Notes under the pieces: model-generated | What the model saw: the letters and a program-made list of their open reading frames with translations, nothing else | Database searches by the model: none | What the model was told of the DNA's origin: nothing | Part shown: positions 1-7,243 of the stretch, in pieces | How the letters are laid out: the number at the start of each line of letters is the position of its first letter | Numbering within the stretch: the stretch's first letter is position 1 | IMG/VR virus record: IMGVR_UViG_2548876950_000015 | Location: 1-7,243 of that record | Source: a virus | Taxonomy: Duplodnaviria; Heunggongvirae; Uroviricota; Caudoviricetes | Strand: one strand, 5' to 3' | DNA: 7,243 nt | Made by a program: the position numbers and the translations under genes

Positions 1-1797
1 TTAGAACTCCTTCACATCTGCGCCAGAAGACACGCTCCAGATCGAAACAGGCGACCCGTTTACACCTATTAACCTTGCTTTCAACCCATTTCCGCTTGCT
101 CTTGGTACGGTTAAATTTGCAGCAGATGGATTCATAGCCCAATCTCCTCCATTTAATATGACACTCATTTCAACTACGCCACCATTATCAATATCTATTA
201 TAGGTGTTTGCACTACCGGGCTTTGTTGATCAATTGGCAGAAAGCCATTGACAATAATAGATGGTCTGAATGATGGGTTTCCCTGAACGCTAACACGAAG
301 TTGCCCACCCTTAACAAATTCTGTTGCACAAGTATTCATGACAATGCAATACGGATTTACAAAATCAAATGCATAGCAAATTGACTCCCCATCCATTGGC
401 GTGCAGTTTTCAGCAGTACAATTGGTCATGGTGGTATATTGCATTCCTGACATTCTAAATGACAACTGGTAACCGTTAACCTGAACAAGGCGCATATCCA
501 TAGAAGTGCCTATTACTTTTATTTGACCATCCCTAAAATCTTCAAATAAAACGCCAGCATATCCTTTCCCTGGATATTGTGGGAAACCGACCATTTCCAT
601 TACGCCAGAGAACGGCACATAAGAGAAGCATCCGATATAAGCACATTCAAAAATTGACTGTCTGATAACTGGTGCTGCTGATTTTCCTAAAAACAGTCCG
701 TAATAATTTCTATAAGAATCTACGTTTTCTTGTGTTAAGCCAAGCCTTCTAAACATGCAGTTTTCAACTCTACCGTTAACACAAAATGAACTCATTGAGT
801 TATCTGTTAGATCCCATTGTTTTGGTATAAAAGCACATAATGCATCCACCTGAAGAATTACTTCTCCATTTTTTGTGAGATCTATTTTGTCATTTGTTGT
901 TTTATAAAAAACTGTCGCTTCAGCCTTTCCCTGTCCTCTAATTCCCATATTGTCATAAATTGGGATTGTTTTTGATGTATTTATGTTTCCAGCAGGAGCC
1001 TCTAGAATGCATTTGTTTGAGCGGGCAAAGTTAGTTGCAAGAGTTATAGCTGTTGCGTTATCTGTGACTCCGTCAGGTTTCACCCCCCAAAATTGCATGT
1101 CGTAAGTGGTAAAATTAATTCGTCTCCATACCATCGTTCCAGTTTCTGGCTTGATTACAATTCCACCATCATCAGCCCACGCCTGAATGTTATCAACAGA
1201 CTCGAAAAAGCCGCCACCAAGGTGGTTTTCAGCATGTGTAGTGCTAGCTGCTGATGCTACGTATACAATCTGCCCTGCCTCCTCCGGAACACAGGAGCGA
1301 AGCTCTGAAAGATTGAGAAAGCGGCCAATAGCGTTAAATCCTGTTTTATCAATTAATGAATCATGTGTAGCTTTCAAGATCTCCAGCTCAATCTTTACGG
1401 TTGTGCCTCCATAACCAACCAGAGATGCGCCATCATGGCCAGAAAGCTCAGCCCTTAACTGATCTGGAGAATATTTCAGTAGATCAGGATAATAGAATTG
1501 TTGTGCACCATACGCATCATACACAGCCATGGAGTGATTCTGTACAGTTACGAACTTGGCAATCTGTCCGTTATATACAGGGTAACCAGCAGCGTTAATG
1601 ATGATTGGTTGCGAAACAGGGACGTGAGAACCATCTTCGTTCTCCACATAAACCTGAATCTGGTTTTCAGGATTTACAGGGTCAGTGTCAATTTTACCAA
1701 TATAAATTTTGCCATTGGCAACCGCTTTAAAAGAACGCGCCATAGTGAAGAGTTGCGAAGGCATCGATACGATCACATTGGCTGTAATGTCTGTCAT
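1..1797 (-). CDS. Tailspike protein: P22 gp9-type head-binding N-terminal domain fused to a divergent receptor-binding domain
   Basis: 598-aa ORF, ATG at 1797-1795 with GGAG about 10 nt upstream, TAA stop at 3-1. The first ~110 residues ([59 protein letters not shown]...KYSPDQ) match, from memory, the conserved head-binding domain of P22 gp9 and the Sf6/HK620 tailspikes. The rest does not resemble the P22 endorhamnosidase body as I recall it. Position after the immI module matches P22 synteny. Confidence 0.88.
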
Positions 1798-1855
1798 TTA
1801 ATTTGCTCCAGATGCAAGGAATCGCCGCAGCATGGCTACGGTGAATTTTGGGCAT

Positions 1856-1880
1856 AAAAAAAAACCCAGCCGAAGCTGGG
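1856..1880 (-). terminator. Rho-independent terminator downstream of the antirepressor-like gene
   Basis: Read on the minus strand: 6-bp GC-rich stem CCCAGC / GCTGGG (1880-1865) with a TTCG loop, followed directly by a run of nine T (plus-strand A-run 1856-1864). Lies about 20 nt after the stop at 1900. Confidence 0.6.
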
Positions 1881-1899
1881 TCGTTGCGTTGGTTATCTG

Positions 1900-2790
1900 T
1901 CAGTAGTTATGTACTGAAGGAGGTAATTCTTTATTCTTAAGTCTCATCCATGCGGAACGATTCGTTGGTCCGTCTGGCTCATTAATATCAACATCTAGTG
2001 TGTGATTGATTAAAACGTCTCTCGCTATATCGATAATACGGGAGAACTCATAACCGCAGTCATGACATCTGCCGGAATAGTTCGATTGAATTTGTTTCAG
2101 CGCCGGATACAATTCGCGGAATAATGCCTGTGAGCGGTTGGCATAATCCCATAACCATACAAGGCTGTTTGCTTCTTTTGCAGAAAGCTCGTTGGTTTTC
2201 TTCTCTTGTTTGCCGATAAATTCACCTTCAAGCACTACCCTGTGGATGTACTCTACGGCCAGCGGGATTTGTTCAATTGAAAGTTCATCAATGCTGTCAA
2301 TACCAAAACGCTGATGAACCATATTGTATGCATCGTCATAGCGAAGTCCTTTCTTTCCTACCAGCATGTTTACTGCATCGCGTAGCGGTGTGCGTTCAGC
2401 TACTGAAGTTTTACCGCCAATACTCTTCCTCTCTTGTGTGGCAGTAACCATTGCGTCATATGCACGGATAACCTTCAGCGCAAATGCTGCGCTAATCCAC
2501 ATGGCGTAGGAGTAAACAAGCTCCTTGCACACGTAGGTTCCACCATATCGACCTTTCTTAGAAAGGACGGGATTCTTATTCTGCATATCCGCAGAATTAA
2601 AAATTTCATTAATCAATTCAATAGTTTCATTTCTACGCATGAAGAAAGCTGGCTGATGTTTTTCCTCCTTTCCAGACGCTACATGAAGGTCATTAAGCGA
2701 GTAACGACCCTCTGAATCCATATGAATCTTGACGTCAGAAATGATGATGCTATTAGTGCAATTTACAGTTGACTTTGCTAAGCTTGACAT
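1900..2790 (-). CDS. KilA-N domain antirepressor-like protein
   Basis: The ORF track extends to 2856, but that start is a GTG overlapping the upstream stop. The ATG at 2790-2788 (MSSLAKS...) has a GAGG 10 nt upstream and puts the KilA-N-like motif ([39 protein letters not shown]) near the N-terminus, as is usual for this family. Family call is from motif recollection only. Position after arc corresponds to ant in P22 immI. Confidence 0.62.
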
Positions 2791-2852
2791 ATCAATAATA
2801 CCTCGTAAGTTTTGTTGATACCGAAGCCCTGACTGTTCCCGCAGTTGGGGCT

Positions 2853-3074
2853 TCACTGTTTTTGTAAGTCACTGTAGCTATAAAGCCACTGACCACTCAT
2901 TTTTGATTTGATTGACTCTACTGAGTCACGGCAAGGAATGATTCCGCCTGACATCATTCTGATCTCCGTAAATTCACCACTCCTTATCGATTCAATGCCA
3001 TCAATGTTAACTAAAGATTTACCTCTACCAAGTGCATTCTCATAGCCAATCTCATCAACCTCAATAAACCTCAT
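2853..3074 (-). CDS. Hypothetical 73-aa protein between arc and the antirepressor-like gene
   Basis: ATG at 3074-3072 overlaps the arc TGA stop (ATGA). A GAGGGG sits about 8 nt upstream. TGA stop at 2855-2853. No family recognised. Confidence 0.4.
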
Positions 3075-3229
3075 GCCGTTATCCCCTCTCTCTTCAGGCT
3101 GTCCAACACTCGCTTGTAAATCTCAGAGTTAACAGATCGCCCGTTCTCTTCAGCTACCTTGCGCACCAAATCCAATACTTCTTTAGGCCACCGCAAATTG
3201 AACTGAGGCATTTTTCTTGCACCTTGCAT
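3071..3229 (-). CDS. arc: Arc-like ribbon-helix-helix transcriptional repressor
   Basis: Manual minus-strand translation gives [52 protein letters not shown] (52 aa), near-identical over the core to P22 Arc as I recall it (MKGMSKMPQFNLRWPREVLDLVRKVAEENGRSVNSEIYQRV...). ATG at 3229-3227 with GGAG 6 nt upstream; TGA at 3073-3071. Missing from the ORF track because it is under 60 aa. An in-frame ATG at 3250 would add 7 residues but has no SD. Confidence 0.85.
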   Translation of the reverse strand: MQGARKMPQFNLRWPKEVLDLVRKVAEENGRSVNSEIYKRVLDSLKREGITA

Positions 3230-3322
3230 ATTCAACTCCATTTCACTCATTGATAGTACCGTACTACTATTGAAAGCGTACTACTACCGTTCTAGCATGT
3301 CAACAAATAAAAGGAGAACGAC
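3230..3322. promoter_or_regulatory. Divergent mnt/arc control region with overlapping candidate promoters and operator-like repeats
   Basis: 93-bp interval between divergent arc and mnt. Inverted repeat TAGTAC-c-GTACTA at 3254-3266 inside GATAGTACCGTACTACTAT (3252-3270), whose flanks resemble the P22 arc operator as I recall it (ATGATAGAAGCACTCTACTAT). Direct repeat CGTACTACTA at 3260-3269 and 3277-3286. Candidate rightward promoter: -35 TTGAAA 3270-3275, -10 TAGCAT 3293-3298. Candidate leftward promoter: -35 TTGACA (complement of 3298-3303), -10 TACGCT (complement of 3275-3280). Confidence 0.5.
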
Positions 3323-3565
3323 GTGGCTAGAAATGATCCACAATTCAACGTAAGAATGCCTGATGAGATAAAACAGCAACTTACGCATATTGCTGCAACA
3401 AATCGCCGCTCGATAAACGCAGAGATTATTTCAGCTATCGAACTATGGATAAAAATTCATAAAGGGCAGCTAATACCTTCAAGTAGTCGAATCCTGACAA
3501 AGTCTGAGCAAGAGGCGTTTGATGTAGCTATTGATGTGTTAAAACGTGTAAGAGATGGAGGATAA
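3323..3565 (+). CDS. mnt: Mnt-like ribbon-helix-helix repressor
   Basis: 80-aa ORF with GTG start at 3323 preceded by AAGGAG (3311-3316). N-terminus MARNDPQFNVRMPDEIKQQL...NRRSINAEI resembles P22 Mnt as I recall it (MARDDPHFNFRMPMEVREKL...NGRSMNSEL). Divergent from arc, as in P22 immI. Confidence 0.85.
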   Translation: MARNDPQFNVRMPDEIKQQLTHIAATNRRSINAEIISAIELWIKIHKGQLIPSSSRILTKSEQEAFDVAIDVLKRVRDGG

Positions 3566-3567
3566 CC

Positions 3568-3801
3568 ATGGAGCAACAACAAGGGTCGCCATTATCATTG
3601 ATTATTATGGTGATTTTTTTCGTTTTTATCTTTTTTATACCTGCGTTAAAAATATCCAAAAAGGCCGGCTTTGACTGGAAGATGGCTGTATGTTTAACAA
3701 TCCCTGGCTTTAACGTGGTGGCGTGGCTCGCGCTTGCGTTCATGGATTGGCCAATTCACAAGTATCTACCAAAAGATGTGAATCGTAAGGATGCAAAATG
3801 A
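3568..3801 (+). CDS. Small two-helix membrane protein, co-transcribed with mnt
   Basis: 77-aa ORF. ATG at 3568 lies 2 nt after the mnt stop, with GGAGG (3557-3561) 6 nt upstream. Hydrophobic stretches LSLIIMVIFFVFIFFIPAL and MAVCLTIPGFNVVAWLALAF, basic C-terminal tail. No family recognised. Confidence 0.6.
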   Translation: MEQQQGSPLSLIIMVIFFVFIFFIPALKISKKAGFDWKMAVCLTIPGFNVVAWLALAFMDWPIHKYLPKDVNRKDAK

Positions 3802-4007
3802 ATAAAAAACAGCTTATTAAGTCAAAAACGTCAAGCAAGGAAGAATTAGAGAAGGAGCTAAACTCCCTGAAATATGCTCTGTGTCTGGTTTACTCAAGAC
3901 TGCCAATGGAAGATAAAAACGCCATTTACAATGAAATGATTAGCAGCCTTGATTTTAACGATAGAGACCTAGCATCCCACCTCAACAGCTTCCGCGTCCC
4001 TGAGTAA
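3798..4007 (+). CDS. Hypothetical 69-aa hydrophilic protein, translationally coupled to the upstream membrane protein
   Basis: ATG at 3798 overlaps the upstream TGA stop (ATGA); AAGGA 6 nt upstream. Charged, helix-prone sequence. TAA stop at 4005-4007. Confidence 0.5.
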   Translation: MNKKQLIKSKTSSKEELEKELNSLKYALCLVYSRLPMEDKNAIYNEMISSLDFNDRDLASHLNSFRVPE

Positions 4008-4167
4008 TTCTGTTGCGGATTTGCTTCTTGCGGTGGTTTAAGCTGGAGAGCTTGGCTTCTGCTTCTGATATTTGCGCATCAAGATCTTTAAGCTCAAGAT
4101 CTGAAAGTCGCTGGTCAAGCAGGGTTTGGTTCAACTCAATGTTGTTCAGGCGTTCTTCTATGGTCAT
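3982..4167 (-). CDS. Hypothetical 61-aa coiled-coil-like protein
   Basis: ATG at 4167-4165 with AAGGAG 5 nt upstream. MTIEERLNNIELNQTLLDQRLSDLELKDLDAQISEAEAKLSSLNHRKK has heptad-like Leu/Ile spacing. The longer track ORF begins at a GTG (4215) with no SD. Its 3' end overlaps the 3' end of the 3798-4007 gene by 26 bp. Confidence 0.4.
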   Translation of the reverse strand: MTIEERLNNIELNQTLLDQRLSDLELKDLDAQISEAEAKLSSLNHRKKQIRNRITQGRGSC

Positions 4168-4308
4168 GATTTCTCCTTGTTGAGGTTGATGTGAAACGAT
4201 TGATTGTATACGCACTCTTTTGTTAGCTAGTAGCTTTGCTTAATCGCAAGATAAAGTTTCTGATTAATCCCTAAAAATCAAAAAATAAAGTTAAAACAGG
4301 TACATGAT
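4168..4308. promoter_or_regulatory. AT-rich divergent intergenic region, presumed promoters for the 3982-4167 (-) and 4309-4512 (+) genes
   Basis: 141-bp AT-rich spacer between two divergently oriented small genes, with several TTG-containing hexamers (for example TTGTTA 4220-4225, TTGCTT 4236-4241). I could not pair a convincing -35/-10 by eye. Confidence 0.3.
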
Positions 4309-4512
4309 ATGGAATGGATCATAGGATTTGTTGTTCTTATCTTCATAGCCAGTATGTTTAAACCAAGAAGTTGCGATATCTGTGGTGCTGGATTTAAGAA
4401 AAAGTACTTCACATGGACTATCGATGGAAAGAAACAGCATCTTTGTCCGTACTGCAACAGTAAAATGGAGAGGCGCAACAGCGATAGGCGCTTTAAGGAT
4501 CGATTTGGTTAA
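4309..4512 (+). CDS. Membrane-anchored zinc-ribbon mini-protein (N-terminal TM helix plus CxxC-x23-CxxC)
   Basis: 67-aa ORF MEWIIGFVVLIFIASMFKPRSCDICGAGFKKKYFTWTIDGKKQHLCPYCNSKMERRNSDRRFKDRFG: one hydrophobic helix, then two Cys pairs (CDIC, CPYC), then an Arg/Lys-rich tail. TAA stop at 4510-4512 is followed about 20 nt later by the terminator hairpin. SD is weak. Confidence 0.55.
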   Translation: MEWIIGFVVLIFIASMFKPRSCDICGAGFKKKYFTWTIDGKKQHLCPYCNSKMERRNSDRRFKDRFG

Positions 4513-4530
4513 CCATTTTATCTCCAACAA

Positions 4531-4560
4531 AAAACCCACCTGACGGTGGGTTTCATTTCT
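4531..4560. terminator. Bidirectional rho-independent terminator between convergent genes
   Basis: Hairpin CCCACC-TGAC-GGTGGG (4535-4550). On the minus strand it is followed by TTTTTTGTTGG (strong, serves the lipoprotein gene ending at 4560). On the plus strand it is followed by TTTCATTTCT (weaker, serves the 4309-4512 gene). Confidence 0.7.
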
Positions 4561-4979
4561 TAATCTTGCTTTGTAGACGGTATAAGGGATGCGTTTGCCT
4601 CTTTTGGCTTCAAGGTATACATCCCACCATTAAATGGATCAACAGCAAGCCAACCAATTAACCCACCAAACACAAGGTTTCCACCAATATACCAACCATT
4701 AGCATTGGCTTTGATTGGCAGGGTAACTGGTTCGTACCCATCCTTTTCCATAGTGATCTGGTAACTCTTTTTGCCAAAATAACTACCATCTGACTTGGCA
4801 AGAGTTACTCCTTGTGGGGTCTTACCTTGCGCAACAATCACGCCTGATTCGTCTTTTACCTTAAAGCTCGCACCGGAAGGATTGCTGTTCACTTGCACAA
4901 GCTGTGTTTCGTCACCAACAATAGTTGCGCACCCAGATAACATGATAGCGCCAGCAACGACGCCAATAATCCTCTTCAT
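4560..4979 (-). CDS. Lipoprotein with a PEGA-like beta-rich domain and a Gly-rich C-terminal segment
   Basis: Signal peptide with lipobox: MKRIIGVVAGAIMLSGC. The track ORF starts 4 codons earlier (ATG 4991, MEID...) with no SD; ATG at 4979 gives the canonical lipoprotein N-terminus. The mature region (NSNPSGASFKVKD...GKTP...ITMEKDGYEP) resembles a PEGA-type fold by motif recollection. C-terminus GWYIGGNLVFGGLIGWLAVDP is Gly-zipper-like. TAA stop at 4562-4560, then the strong terminator. Confidence 0.7.
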   Translation of the reverse strand: MKRIIGVVAGAIMLSGCATIVGDETQLVQVNSNPSGASFKVKDESGVIVAQGKTPQGVTLAKSDGSYFGKKSYQITMEKDGYEPVTLPIKANANGWYIGGNLVFGGLIGWLAVDPFNGGMYTLKPKEANASLIPSTKQD

Positions 4980-5074
4980 ATCAATTTCCATATCTAAAAA
5001 ACCGGAAACATCCTAATGACAAACCATTCAAATGTGAAGCACGAGATAAGATCAATCCATCCGTGGACGACTAA

Positions 5075-7243
5075 TTACTCCTGTGTCATTCCGCTTAGCG
5101 ATGCCACAATCCCAGCCCTCGACAAACGCTGGAACTCTTCGTTTCCTAGTGCATCGCGAATTGCTTTTACGGCGGCCTTATTTGCCATAAATCTGCGTTC
5201 CGCCGCCGCTAATGCGCCATCACTTGCCCCAACCTTAACTGCCTTTGTTGCCTCTTGAACAGCCTTTTCAATAGCGTAACGACCACTTCTGGTTGCGGAT
5301 AATTTCGCTATCGATCCTTTTGCTATCGCATCAATTGCTCCACCAGCAGCGCCACCCACTATTGCTCCAATAACACCTCCTCCAGAGAACCCTGCGATAG
5401 CGCCAGCGGTTGGAAAAGCGCCAGACAATACGCTCTCTAAAACTGGATGAAGGCCATTCTCAAGAGTGCTAATGGCTGGCATAGAGCGCCCTGTTTGTTC
5501 AACATATCGAAGTGGCTTTGTTGCAGCTCTTGCAAGTTCTCCGTATGAACTTGTAATCCTGCCAAGTTCTGGAGAATATCGACTAATTGCCTTCACGTTT
5601 TGTGGGGTAAGAATAGTCGCGATATGCTTAATTCCAGCTCCTTCAGACTTACCTCCGCGTACCCCTTGCGATACCGCATCTTGTAATATTGATGCAATTG
5701 CTGGCGCGCGTTCCGACTCAGGTAGGGCGCTTATTATTTTATGGAACTGACCTGTTCCACTTTTTGCTGAACCCTGTAACGCCTTAGATCCATTAGTTAC
5801 CAACTGATCAGTTGCAAGGTCTCTACCAAACGCTGCTTCAGCCTGTTCTTGTGCTGTAAATCTTGCCTTTGACAGATCATTAGCTTTTTGCCAGTCATCA
5901 AGAAAATCGCCATTTTGAGCCATTATGCGCATATCTTCCGTTGCTGCATCACGAAGCTCAGCCATGCGCCTTGCCGTATTTGCCTCACCAGACCTTATAT
6001 ACTTCTGCTCTGCGTCAGCAAGTTTACTTCGCCATGCCTTCATGGCATCAAACGTGATTCCTTTTTTACCAGTTTTAGCATAAGCAGATGCGAATTGTTT
6101 CATCTCAGGAGTTAGCGGCATGCCAGCCAAAATATCACCCTGAATTGTAGCGTTCAGGTTTGACATTCTGGCCTTTGCGTCAGGCATCGTGGAGCGGACG
6201 CTATCCCATGCGGCCTTTTCTGAATTTTTCATTTTATCAATACTTGCCAAAACCCTTTGTTTTATGGCTGCACTTTTTTCTGATGCAGTTCCTGCTTCAG
6301 CCCCAAACTCATCCAATGCTGAGTTAAATTTCGACTCTATTTCACTGAATGCTTTGGTGTGTGCATCCTGTGTAATTCCGGGCTTTGATGCCAGAATCCC
6401 CTCCGCCTGAGCAAGACCACGACTACCTGATCTCATGCCAGGAGTTAATGCGTTGATATCTATTCCAGCAGTATCTGCTGCTTTTGCTATTTCGTCTGAC
6501 ACATTAGCTGACTGTCTGGCAATAATCTCTCTTCCTGTACCAGACTTTGCCATTTTCGAAACATCAGCAGCGGAATTTATTGCCCCGCCACCAAGAACTT
6601 GAGGTGATTTAGAGGTTAAGATCCTTCCAGCCCCAGAAAGTATCCCCTGAGCACCAATATTGATACCACCGTTAATGGCAGCATTTTGTGCAAAGTCGCC
6701 CTCCTGATTTGCAGCATCAGCAAGAGAACCTGCAATCATGTTTCCTGCGGAACCGATATCTCCAGCGAGCTTTGCTGGCGCTCCAGCAGCTTTTGCCGCT
6801 GTGCCAATTGGCAGGAGATACCCACCAATTGTTTCACCGGCTTGCGCGTAAGGGTCTGTCGGTCGATCGACAGGGCGATAAACATCATCCAAAACCTTGG
6901 GGCCGCCAAGCCCCTGGCTGATTGCATTAATCAGACTTGCGCCACCCTGCAATACGTCAAATGGTATGTTTACCAGACCACGACCAGCCTGTTCTGCAAT
7001 TTGCCCTGCACTTTGACCACCTGTGAGCCAATCACCAGCTTGTTGCATCAATGATGGTTCTTCTTTCTGCTGCTGAGGCGGAGGGTATGCTGCATAAAAC
7101 TGATCTCTTGCTTCAGCCCATTTGTCACCAGCCTTAGGGGCAACAACCTCATCAAAATATTGCGCTTGAGCCTGTGCTTTCTGTTCTTCAGTTAACGCCT
7201 GATACTGTGGAGAAGCGATAACATCTTTCCATGCTTTAGCCAT
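5075..7243 (-). CDS. Phage DNA-ejection / DNA-transfer protein (P22 gp16/gp20-like by position and composition)
   Basis: 722-aa ORF; ATG at the window edge (7243-7241), so the true N-terminus may lie outside the window. TAA stop at 5077-5075. Ala/Gly/Gln-rich, low-complexity and helix-prone, with a Gly-zipper segment ([31 protein letters not shown]) near the C-terminus. It sits on the distal side of the accessory island, where P22 has gene 16. Product assignment is by synteny and composition, not by remembered sequence identity. Confidence 0.6.

Follow-up and report, generated by a model that had tools for sequence, protein, structure and literature searches.

We analysed a stretch of 7,243 nucleotides (nt) from a Caudoviricetes virus (positions 1 to 7,243 of the IMG/VR record IMGVR_UViG_2548876950_000015; hereafter, the window), with a focus on one small open reading frame (ORF) of its plus strand. 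The window is a P22-like immI region, in which tailspike, ant, sar, arc and mnt are followed, further on, by the small ORF and then by a gene 16 homologue (Table 1). The ORF starts with an ATG at 4309 and its stop codon is at 4510-4512; its product of 67 amino acids (aa), MEWIIGFVVLIFIASMFKPRSCDICGAGFKKKYFTWTIDGKKQHLCPYCNSKMERRNSDRRFKDRFG, is predicted to be a Cys4 mini-protein anchored in the membrane. PGAP/RefSeq left the gene uncalled in the source genome (L001, positions 6001-6391), where the PGAP annotation passes from orf61 straight to the lipoprotein gene, and the gene is likewise unannotated in almost all of the 32 E. coli genomes harbouring it. The homologues in phages KP12 and Edno5 were called by the GenBank submitters.

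Conservation and selection

Since the window contains 44 ORFs of at least 40 aa, the length of this ORF alone is not significant, and the case for a gene rests on conservation. The reading frame was intact in 77 of the 81 related loci, with full-length homologues at 60-100% identity. Using tblastn, full-length homologues with 66-69% identity were found in the Klebsiella phages KP12, klb_E, and KpnBHU6 and in the Edwardsiella phage Edno5, a large protein database yielded 18 clusters at 65-97% identity, and scans of viral and genome contigs added a further 71 loci. Among the diverged loci, the proportion of non-synonymous differences (pN) was 0.13-0.26, and that of synonymous differences (pS) was 0.8-1.1, i.e., synonymous sites were saturated; for the closest pair, the window and locus L010, pN/pS was 0.13/0.35. 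The cysteine pairs, on whose conservation an earlier reading of the sequence alone (hereafter, the sequence-only reading) had made its interpretation depend, were retained, with C22, C46, and C49 invariant and C25 nearly invariant. One natural C25S allele (P0007 at locus L028, with CDVSG) is still coupled to mnt, with a 4-nt overlap, and represents either a three-ligand site or a decaying copy.

The minus-strand ORF at 4291-4539 (82 aa), which the sequence-only reading had itself named as the competitor, might be the real gene and the plus-strand ORF its shadow. It is open in the window and in KP12, but it is broken by 2-5 same-frame stops in L003, L004, L005, L007, L008, L009, and L010, whereas the sense frame was open in every locus where the antisense frame was compared. 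The substitution pattern also agrees with the plus-strand frame, and the antisense ORF has no family match in Pfam or PHROGs and would extend through a terminator hairpin. The stops in the homologues rule it out as a real gene, and we give this alternative practically no credence. The comparison among homologues indicates that the 67-aa ORF is a genuine plus-strand gene under purifying selection.

Linkage to mnt across phages

The homologues of Edno5, KP12, and many contigs of uncultivated phages begin -4 to 36 nt downstream of a gene on the same strand, and immediately past that gene, on the opposite strand, lie arc and an antirepressor gene. The close upstream neighbours, with a gap no larger than 60 nt, comprised 19 distinct proteins, of which 15 matched the Pfam Arc family (Mnt-like) and one was a repressor with HTH_3 and Peptidase_S24 domains. 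When all loci were scanned with an Arc/Mnt hidden Markov model, a same-strand Arc/Mnt gene was present upstream in 45 of the 51 phage-derived loci, and such a gene lay within 40 nt upstream for 22 of the 28 distinct alleles. Given these frequencies, the gene is normally the second cistron of the mnt operon in phages. At locus L008, the HTH_3 and Peptidase_S24 (cI-like) repressor occupies the place of mnt and is paired with a P22_AR antirepressor. The repressor that precedes the gene is the one that keeps the antirepressor silent, usually mnt, and the gene lies on the same strand as this repressor, antisense to the late genes.

The backbones of the carriers differ and include P22-like podophages as well as myophage-type prophages with E217/Pam3-like tail and baseplate genes. 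Regarding co-occurrence with neighbouring genes across prophages, the linkage to mnt was recurrent, and that to orf77, orf69, and orf61, the genes that separate mnt from the 67-aa gene in the window, was limited to E. coli. At two loci (L004 and L023), the homologue stands alone among tail genes. In a Yersinia prophage (L005/L006, 4551-4988), a YafO-family toxin gene and a gene for a 186-aa partner lie between mnt and the homologue, which makes the interval downstream of mnt a recurrent insertion site for accessory cargo.

Predicted structure and topology

Residues 2-17 of the protein are hydrophobic, and the cysteines at positions 22, 25, 46, and 49 form a CxxC-x20-CxxC motif; the spacing of x23 given in the sequence-only reading was a miscount. 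Residues 18-67 contain 14 K/R and 5 D/E, a net charge of +9 that bears out the basic C-terminal part proposed earlier, and the isoelectric point of the whole protein is 9.75. An AlphaFold2 model built on a 17-sequence alignment had a mean predicted local distance difference test score of 82.8 and comprised a helix (2-16), a knuckle with C22 and C25, two strands (34-38 and 41-45), and a second helix (47-66) that starts at C46-P-Y-C49, with C46 closing strand 41-45 and C49 located in the first turn of the helix. As the second cysteine pair is supplied by the N-terminus of a helix that follows a knuckle and a beta-hairpin, the fold is predicted to be a treble clef rather than a two-knuckle zinc ribbon. 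The same knuckle, beta-hairpin, and ligand-donating helix are found in other treble-clef fingers, including the ββα region of HNH/EndoVII, FYVE, LIM, ArfGAP, GATA, L24e, and CsfB.

The finger presumably binds zinc, as suggested by the conservation of the four cysteines. The N-terminus is probably outside and the finger and tail cytoplasmic (N-out/C-in), because the helix is followed by KPR, in accordance with the positive-inside rule, and because the domain arrangements of relatives (described below) point the same way; a cytoplasmic location would also suit a Cys4 zinc site, which needs a reducing compartment. The extreme C-terminus, FKDRFG, is a conserved tail in which F62, F66, and G67 are invariant within the close family, and in a 38-sequence superfamily alignment S58 was invariant and P47 and N50 were conserved at 90% or more. 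The data thus agree with the core of the sequence-only reading: the gene is small but real, and its product has a membrane helix at the N-terminus, a conserved Cys4 metal site, and a strongly basic C-terminal part. Structure prediction upheld the membrane helix and the Cys4 finger and replaced the zinc ribbon that the sequence-only reading had assigned with the predicted treble clef, the zinc-ribbon models of Pfam scoring far under their thresholds (best match, Zn_ribbon_8, 16.8 vs 34.4 bits; DZR_2, 15.4 vs 27).

Searches against known families and folds

No annotated family in Pfam, NCBIfam, PHROGs, or PADLOC reached its threshold with the 67-aa protein. A classical zinc ribbon was rejected on these scores and on the AlphaFold2 model, in which a helix supplies the second-pair ligand. 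PHROGs returned unannotated or sub-threshold matches only, with no annotated exclusion PHROG at E <= 0.1, and no defence model of PADLOC-DB v2 matched at E <= 1. A Lar-like restriction alleviation protein (phrog_6422) was rejected because the match was under threshold (E = 0.021, 16.2 bits) and covered the Cys4 region only, and membership of the Ogr/Delta and HNH families was dismissed at scores far under threshold. Phage Mu Com was likewise discarded: no Com family appeared in the Pfam scan at E <= 1, and Com is a soluble protein of ~62 aa, whereas the present protein is membrane-anchored. A BFVD structure search gave nothing below E = 0.019, a PDB profile search gave spurious matches only, each bridging two adjacent C2H2 fingers, and what the fold searches returned were generic treble clefs. 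Our literature searches retrieved no described membrane-anchored zinc-finger exclusion protein.

Module borders and expression

The gene is part of a 348-bp module (4179-4526) that forms a discrete mosaic block with sharp borders. At the left border (4178/4179), similarity to Salmonella phage Emek stops at 4178, 8 bases past the orf61 start codon, and in Emek a terminator follows directly; at the right border (4526/4527), similarity to phage epsilon34 starts at 4527, at the hairpin. Of 5426 complete E. coli genomes searched, 32 carried the module with at least 98.6% identity, always as a single chromosomal copy; E. coli strains that have it include UMNK88, ATCC 43886, and MRE162. The ORF was intact and 98.6-100% identical in all 32 genomes and in 11 viral contigs, in prophages that differ elsewhere. 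The GC content of the 138 bp upstream of the gene was 0.32, compared with 0.435 for the window, and that of the gene region was 0.32-0.40, compared with 0.47 for the adjacent late genes. The sequence-only reading had regarded this AT-rich segment as the gene's own upstream region; the low GC content stands, but the segment contains a relic of ~40 bp of an mnt 3' end (about 4249-4288, with the relic stop TAA at 4286-4288) and its promoter matches do not exceed 7/12. Positions 4249-4301 of the window align with positions 4930-5000 of L010, i.e., with the last codons, the stop, and the intercistronic spacer AGTTAAAA of an mnt-like gene. The relic appears to be the footprint of the recombination that parted the gene from mnt.

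The hairpin downstream of the gene had folding energies of -14.2 and -16.5 kcal/mol on the plus and minus strands, respectively, with a U6 tract on the minus strand. The same hairpin is found in epsilon34, where it comes straight after mnt and carries a terminator annotation; it is therefore an element of the P22-like backbone and not, as the sequence-only reading had it, the gene's own. The claim that the gene behaves as an independent cargo unit therefore needs qualifying: the discrete mosaic block is real, but across phages the gene is usually the second cistron of the mnt operon. Of the hallmarks of a moron, an autonomous transcription unit within a late operon, it has a deviating composition and a downstream terminator, though the latter is a shared backbone element.

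A promoter scan of 4171-4308 gave no site passing 9/12, and no convincing sigma-70 promoter was found in this interval, where the best permissive matches scored 7/12. The Shine-Dalgarno sequence is weak (AGG at 4298-4300), compared with GGAG or AGGAG in the homologues. No plus-strand terminator was predicted between the candidate Pmnt promoter (3270-3298), whose position matches that of Pmnt/Pant in P22 and epsilon34, and position 4532. These three features make read-through from Pmnt the most economical route of expression. The mnt-like gene of the window, whose product is 42% identical to the N-terminus of P22 Mnt, is the probable operon leader, and we infer that the protein is made in the lysogen on the mnt transcript, in this prophage via Pmnt read-through across orf77-orf69.

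Chromosomal clade and wider family

Homologues of ~58-71 aa (most 68-69 aa) with 55-71% identity were also found on the chromosomes of Morganella, Proteus, Photorhabdus, Xenorhabdus, Enterobacter, Serratia, Dickeya, and other genera. Their flanks include an ABC-2 permease with peptidase U32, an ABC importer with TetR, dxs, and GntR-aminotransferase genes, and these neighbourhoods are conserved within a genus and different between genera. None of the 25 chromosomal-clade loci had mnt upstream, and the phage-borne and chromosomal copies separated in a neighbour-joining tree with two exceptions, one of which (L072) itself lies in a prophage. As no immI genes are found near the chromosomal copies, the protein probably works without Mnt, Arc, or Ant. 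In Morganella and Photorhabdus (L058, L060, L063, L065, L078, and L079), an ABC transporter operon with the same orientation closely precedes the homologue. It encodes two ABC-2 permeases in Morganella and an ATPase with a BPD_transp_1 permease in Photorhabdus; this adjacency could be chance or a functional hint.

A profile search over 1.84 billion representatives, with clustering at 50% identity, extended the combination of a transmembrane (TM) helix and the finger to at least 306 clusters at E <= 0.001, including 74 at E <= 1e-10. Among the top 150 relatives, the TM helix directly precedes the finger in all but a few, which are mainly fragments and TM-less multi-repeat proteins. In a crude binning by length and position, 34 relatives were minimal with one TM helix, like the 67-aa protein; 68 had an N-terminal extension and carried the module at the C-terminal end; and 21 carried it first, followed by a C-terminal extension that usually has a second TM helix. 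The finger of the commonest relatives is preceded by a basic stub at the N-terminus and by two TM helices, and most of the 68 with an N-terminal extension are of this type, with ~100 aa; some longer ones consist of a signal peptide, a Sel1 or SH3_3 domain, a TM helix, and the finger. Conserved across the superfamily are the four cysteines, P47, N50, S58, and basic or aromatic residues of the hairpin (KRKYYxW, GKK), and many members end in F-K-x-[RK]-F-G. One relative was close to Pfam zf_Tbcl_Rhp7, a treble-clef model, at 26.9 vs 27 bits.

HIRAN domains bind DNA ends. In one distant relative, P0094, the TM helix and the Cys4 finger are followed by a HIRAN domain (E = 2.8e-17) and then by another TM helix; the HIRAN domain lies on the cytoplasmic side, and no other fusion points to DNA ends as a ligand of the module. 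The charge of the 67-aa protein and this single HIRAN fusion hint that the protein may bind nucleic acid or protein at the membrane. Two distant relatives adjoin integrases, in mobile elements, and no conserved neighbours beyond nearby integrases were found for the distant two-TM relatives. All source names of the relatives were 'hypothetical' except for two 'FluMu Com' labels, which are automated JGI labels on two distant two-TM relatives and receive no support from Pfam. Three proteins of 529-968 aa (P0130, P0137, and P0145) with 5-10 tandem fingers matching the profile and no TM helix may belong to an unrelated repeat family caught via the Cys4 pattern, and DUF1311-like periplasmic domains suspected in P0048 and P0054 were dropped because Pfam gave no confirmation at E <= 0.01. 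The TM and treble-clef module constitutes a large undescribed family, with no Pfam, NCBIfam, or PADLOC model.

Comparison with known systems

P22 carries orf59a and sieA in its mnt-to-gene 16 interval, in the order Pmnt-mnt-orf59a-terminator and then sieA, with the same orientation as in the window. Homologues of the 67-aa gene fill exactly the slot of orf59a, directly after mnt and before the operon terminator, but the P22 product is a soluble, Gly/Lys-rich protein of 59 aa without a TM helix or cysteines. SieA, an inner-membrane protein that is expressed by the prophage and has a conserved motif on its cytoplasmic side, is likewise encoded antisense to the late genes in this variable interval. 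It has 162 aa, three TM helices, and no cysteine motif, compared with 67 aa and one TM helix here, and it has its own mapped promoter. No sequence similarity to SieA (BLASTP) or to Orf59a was found. The SieA family is characterized by the motif FxRYPxEAxxFNK (PMC10883804). With respect to that family, the gene is located where its members are, flanked by the homologues of gene 16 and gene 9 in a P22-like prophage, whereas the protein lies outside the size and topology of the family (~160-200 aa with three or four TM helices). In addition, SieA is confined to P22-like prophages, whereas the 67-aa gene also occurs in myophage-type prophages and on chromosomes.

HK97 gp15 and T4 Imm are small single-pass inner-membrane proteins that block DNA entry and are encoded in moron-like positions; they resemble the 67-aa protein in size and topology, but they are not known to have a metal-binding domain. 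In AbiP of Lactococcus and PdpSau of an S. aureus prophage, which act in abortive infection, an N-terminal anchor is followed by a basic cytoplasmic domain thought to bind nucleic acid (PMC10127798). The likeness to these proteins is one of architecture only (TM helix 2-16, net charge of +9 over 18-67) and of carriage as accessory genes on mobile elements or prophages. AbiP and PdpSau stem from Gram-positive hosts, are four times the size, contain an OB-fold, and have no sequence relationship to the 67-aa protein, whose cytoplasmic domain is predicted to be a 46-residue treble clef and not an OB fold. Small accessory genes for membrane proteins that are expressed by the prophage and occupy a known hypervariable slot are of a familiar kind; the linkage to mnt and the treble clef on a membrane helix are new observations. 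The lack of matches in PADLOC and PHROGs and the comparison with SieA accord with the remark in the sequence-only reading that no described superinfection-exclusion or defence protein could be recognized.

Possible functions

As a speculative reading that we favour tentatively, the protein may be a lysogenic-conversion factor that acts in exclusion of, or defence against, other phages at the cytoplasmic face of the inner membrane. It would be made in the lysogen and sit at this face, where the basic hairpin and helix might bind entering DNA, the injection conduit at its exit, or an inner-membrane protein of the host that phages need, and it would be a positional and functional analogue of SieA on a different fold. 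This reading is based on the slot shared with sieA, on the absence of sieA where the gene is present (tblastn of P22 SieA found it in none of the carrying loci), and on the fact that two thirds of P22-like phages lack sieA (PMC10883804). It is also based on the distant relatives in mobile elements and on the precedent of AbiP and PdpSau as membrane-anchored basic proteins. Temperate phages of two virion types place the TM-finger module under the promoter that maintains lysogeny. The more specific proposal, that the module represents a new class of exclusion or defence proteins acting from the cytoplasmic side, e.g., by seizing the entering DNA end or plugging the conduit exit, with the chromosomal copies domesticated, has in our view a rather small chance of being correct.

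Several observations weigh against a role in exclusion. As described above, no PADLOC defence model and no annotated exclusion PHROG matched the protein, and the fold searches gave generic treble clefs only. In the window, 743 nt separate the gene from mnt, its Shine-Dalgarno sequence is AGG only, and the promoter matches before it reach at most 7/12, which makes its expression there less certain. Simple hitch-hiking within a mobile immI cassette could also explain the linkage to mnt. The sister clade, in a housekeeping context with no phage genes, argues for a protein able to act on a generic host target and not necessarily anti-phage.

The chromosomal clade accordingly suggests the main rival, in which the protein is a small-membrane-protein regulator whose finger and tail dock on a host inner-membrane transporter, protease, or sensor and tune it, the phages having borrowed a chromosomal gene for a lysogenic conversion unrelated to defence. 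We consider this possible, though on the doubtful side. It would account for the conservation of the chromosomal clade within genera in housekeeping contexts, for the sister-group relationship of the phage and chromosomal copies, and for FKDRFG at the extreme C-terminus, which is typical of a docking peptide; the Morganella and Photorhabdus copies downstream of ABC transporter operons and a weak ABC2_membrane_3 match N-terminal to the module in one distant relative point in the same direction. However, the neighbours vary between genera without a consistent partner, the adjacency to ABC operons is possibly chance, and the strict placement in a lysogeny operon and the relatives in mobile elements fit conflict functions at least as well. 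Alternatively, the protein may be an accessory of the immI circuit that tethers or titrates Ant, Arc/Mnt, or another regulator at the membrane and thereby adjusts induction or the lysis-lysogeny decision. The tight coupling to the repressor of ant in many phages (gaps of -4 to 36 nt), the presence of ant and arc next door in almost every case, and the retention of the coupling at L008, where a cI-like S24 repressor stands beside a P22_AR antirepressor, are in line with such a role. It is nevertheless improbable, given that the chromosomal clade and hundreds of distant relatives lack immI genes, that the L004 and L023 copies stand alone among tail genes, and that P22, the model immI phage, works without the protein.

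In the present prophage, the gene might also be a silent passenger, cut from its operon by the insertion of orf77-orf69-orf61 and without useful expression. The distance of 743 nt to mnt with the antisense orf61 in between, the mnt 3' relic upstream, the reduction of the Shine-Dalgarno sequence to AGG from GGAG/AGGAG in homologues, and the lack of a promoter above 7/12 would be expected in that case, whereas the intact ORF, 98.6-100% identical in the 32 E. coli genomes and 11 viral contigs, and the absence of a plus-strand terminator from Pmnt to the gene speak for continued use. The E. coli copies are too alike to measure selection within E. coli, and their identity is therefore weak evidence in either direction; on balance, we regard a silent passenger as unlikely.

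If a role in exclusion is correct, the protein would add a zinc-finger mechanism to a field in which few inner-membrane exclusion proteins are understood, and it would offer a way into a module shared by hundreds of protein families of bacteria and mobile elements. Otherwise, the gene is a further small accessory ORF. Unstudied small genes fill the interval from mnt to gene 16, and this one is conserved, under selection, and missed by a standard annotation pipeline. Its coupling to a lysogeny-maintenance repressor in unrelated backbones makes it a candidate for a new prophage function at the inner membrane.

Other genes and features of the window

Table 1. Features of the 7,243-nt window and the basis of their assignment.
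Feature	Position	Strand	Basis or remark
Tailspike gene	1-1797	-	
ant	1900-2856	-	
sar antisense RNA, overlaps the ant 5' end	2792-2857	+	Rfam RF00262, 61.7 bits, full length
orf73 (phrog_11805), between arc and ant, overlapping the arc stop	2853-3074	-	
arc	3071-3250	-	
Candidate Pmnt promoter, TTGAAA-17-TAGCAT, in the arc/mnt divergent control region	3270..3298	+	Promoter scan
mnt-like Arc-family repressor gene	3323..3565	+	Pfam Arc, E=1.8e-12; annotated mnt in Emek
orf77, TM protein	3568-3801	+	In block 3568..4170
orf69	3798-4007	+	In block 3568..4170
orf61, coiled coil	3982-4170	-	In block 3568..4170
AT-rich upstream part of the module: mnt 3' relic, intercistronic AGTTAAAA, weak Shine-Dalgarno	4179..4308	+	
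Coding sequence of the 67-aa membrane-anchored Cys4 mini-protein	4309..4512, stop included	+	ORF list, conservation, purifying selection
N-terminal TM helix, residues 2-17 (predicted)	4312..4359	+	AlphaFold2 helix 2-16; KPR after helix; domains of relatives
Cys4 treble-clef zinc finger (predicted): C22, C25, beta-hairpin 34-45, C46, C49	4372..4455	+	
Basic C-terminal helix (predicted), superfamily P47, N50, S58, terminal F-K-x-R-F-G	4447..4509	+	AlphaFold2 helix 47-66; alignments
Bidirectional intrinsic-terminator hairpin, shared with the convergent lipoprotein gene	4532..4553	both	
Lipoprotein gene, 143 aa (139 aa from the phrog-supported start), lipobox LSGC, phrog_6823	4560-4991	-	
gene 16 homologue	5075-7243	-	

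The full-length match of sar confirms the window as a functional-looking immI region of the P22 type. P22 has no gene at the position of orf73. The inserted block orf77-orf69-orf61 corresponds to PHROGs 32536, 16466, and 7586; orf69 and orf61 converge with a 26-nt overlap (3982-4007) and no terminator between them. The block is also found in Emek, without the 67-aa gene, and partly in E. coli phage Kapi1, and it co-occurs with the 67-aa gene solely in the E. coli lineage. A functional link of the 67-aa gene with the divergent orf61, which always accompanies it in E. coli, was rejected because orf61 and orf69 occur without the 67-aa gene in Emek and Kapi1 and neither accompanies it outside E. 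coli.

The lipoprotein encoded between the 67-aa gene and gene 16 is a homologue of the product of epsilon34 gene 15 and has a weak PEGA-domain match; its likeness to Cor is confined to the signal peptide. Its gene is a candidate for another envelope or exclusion factor.

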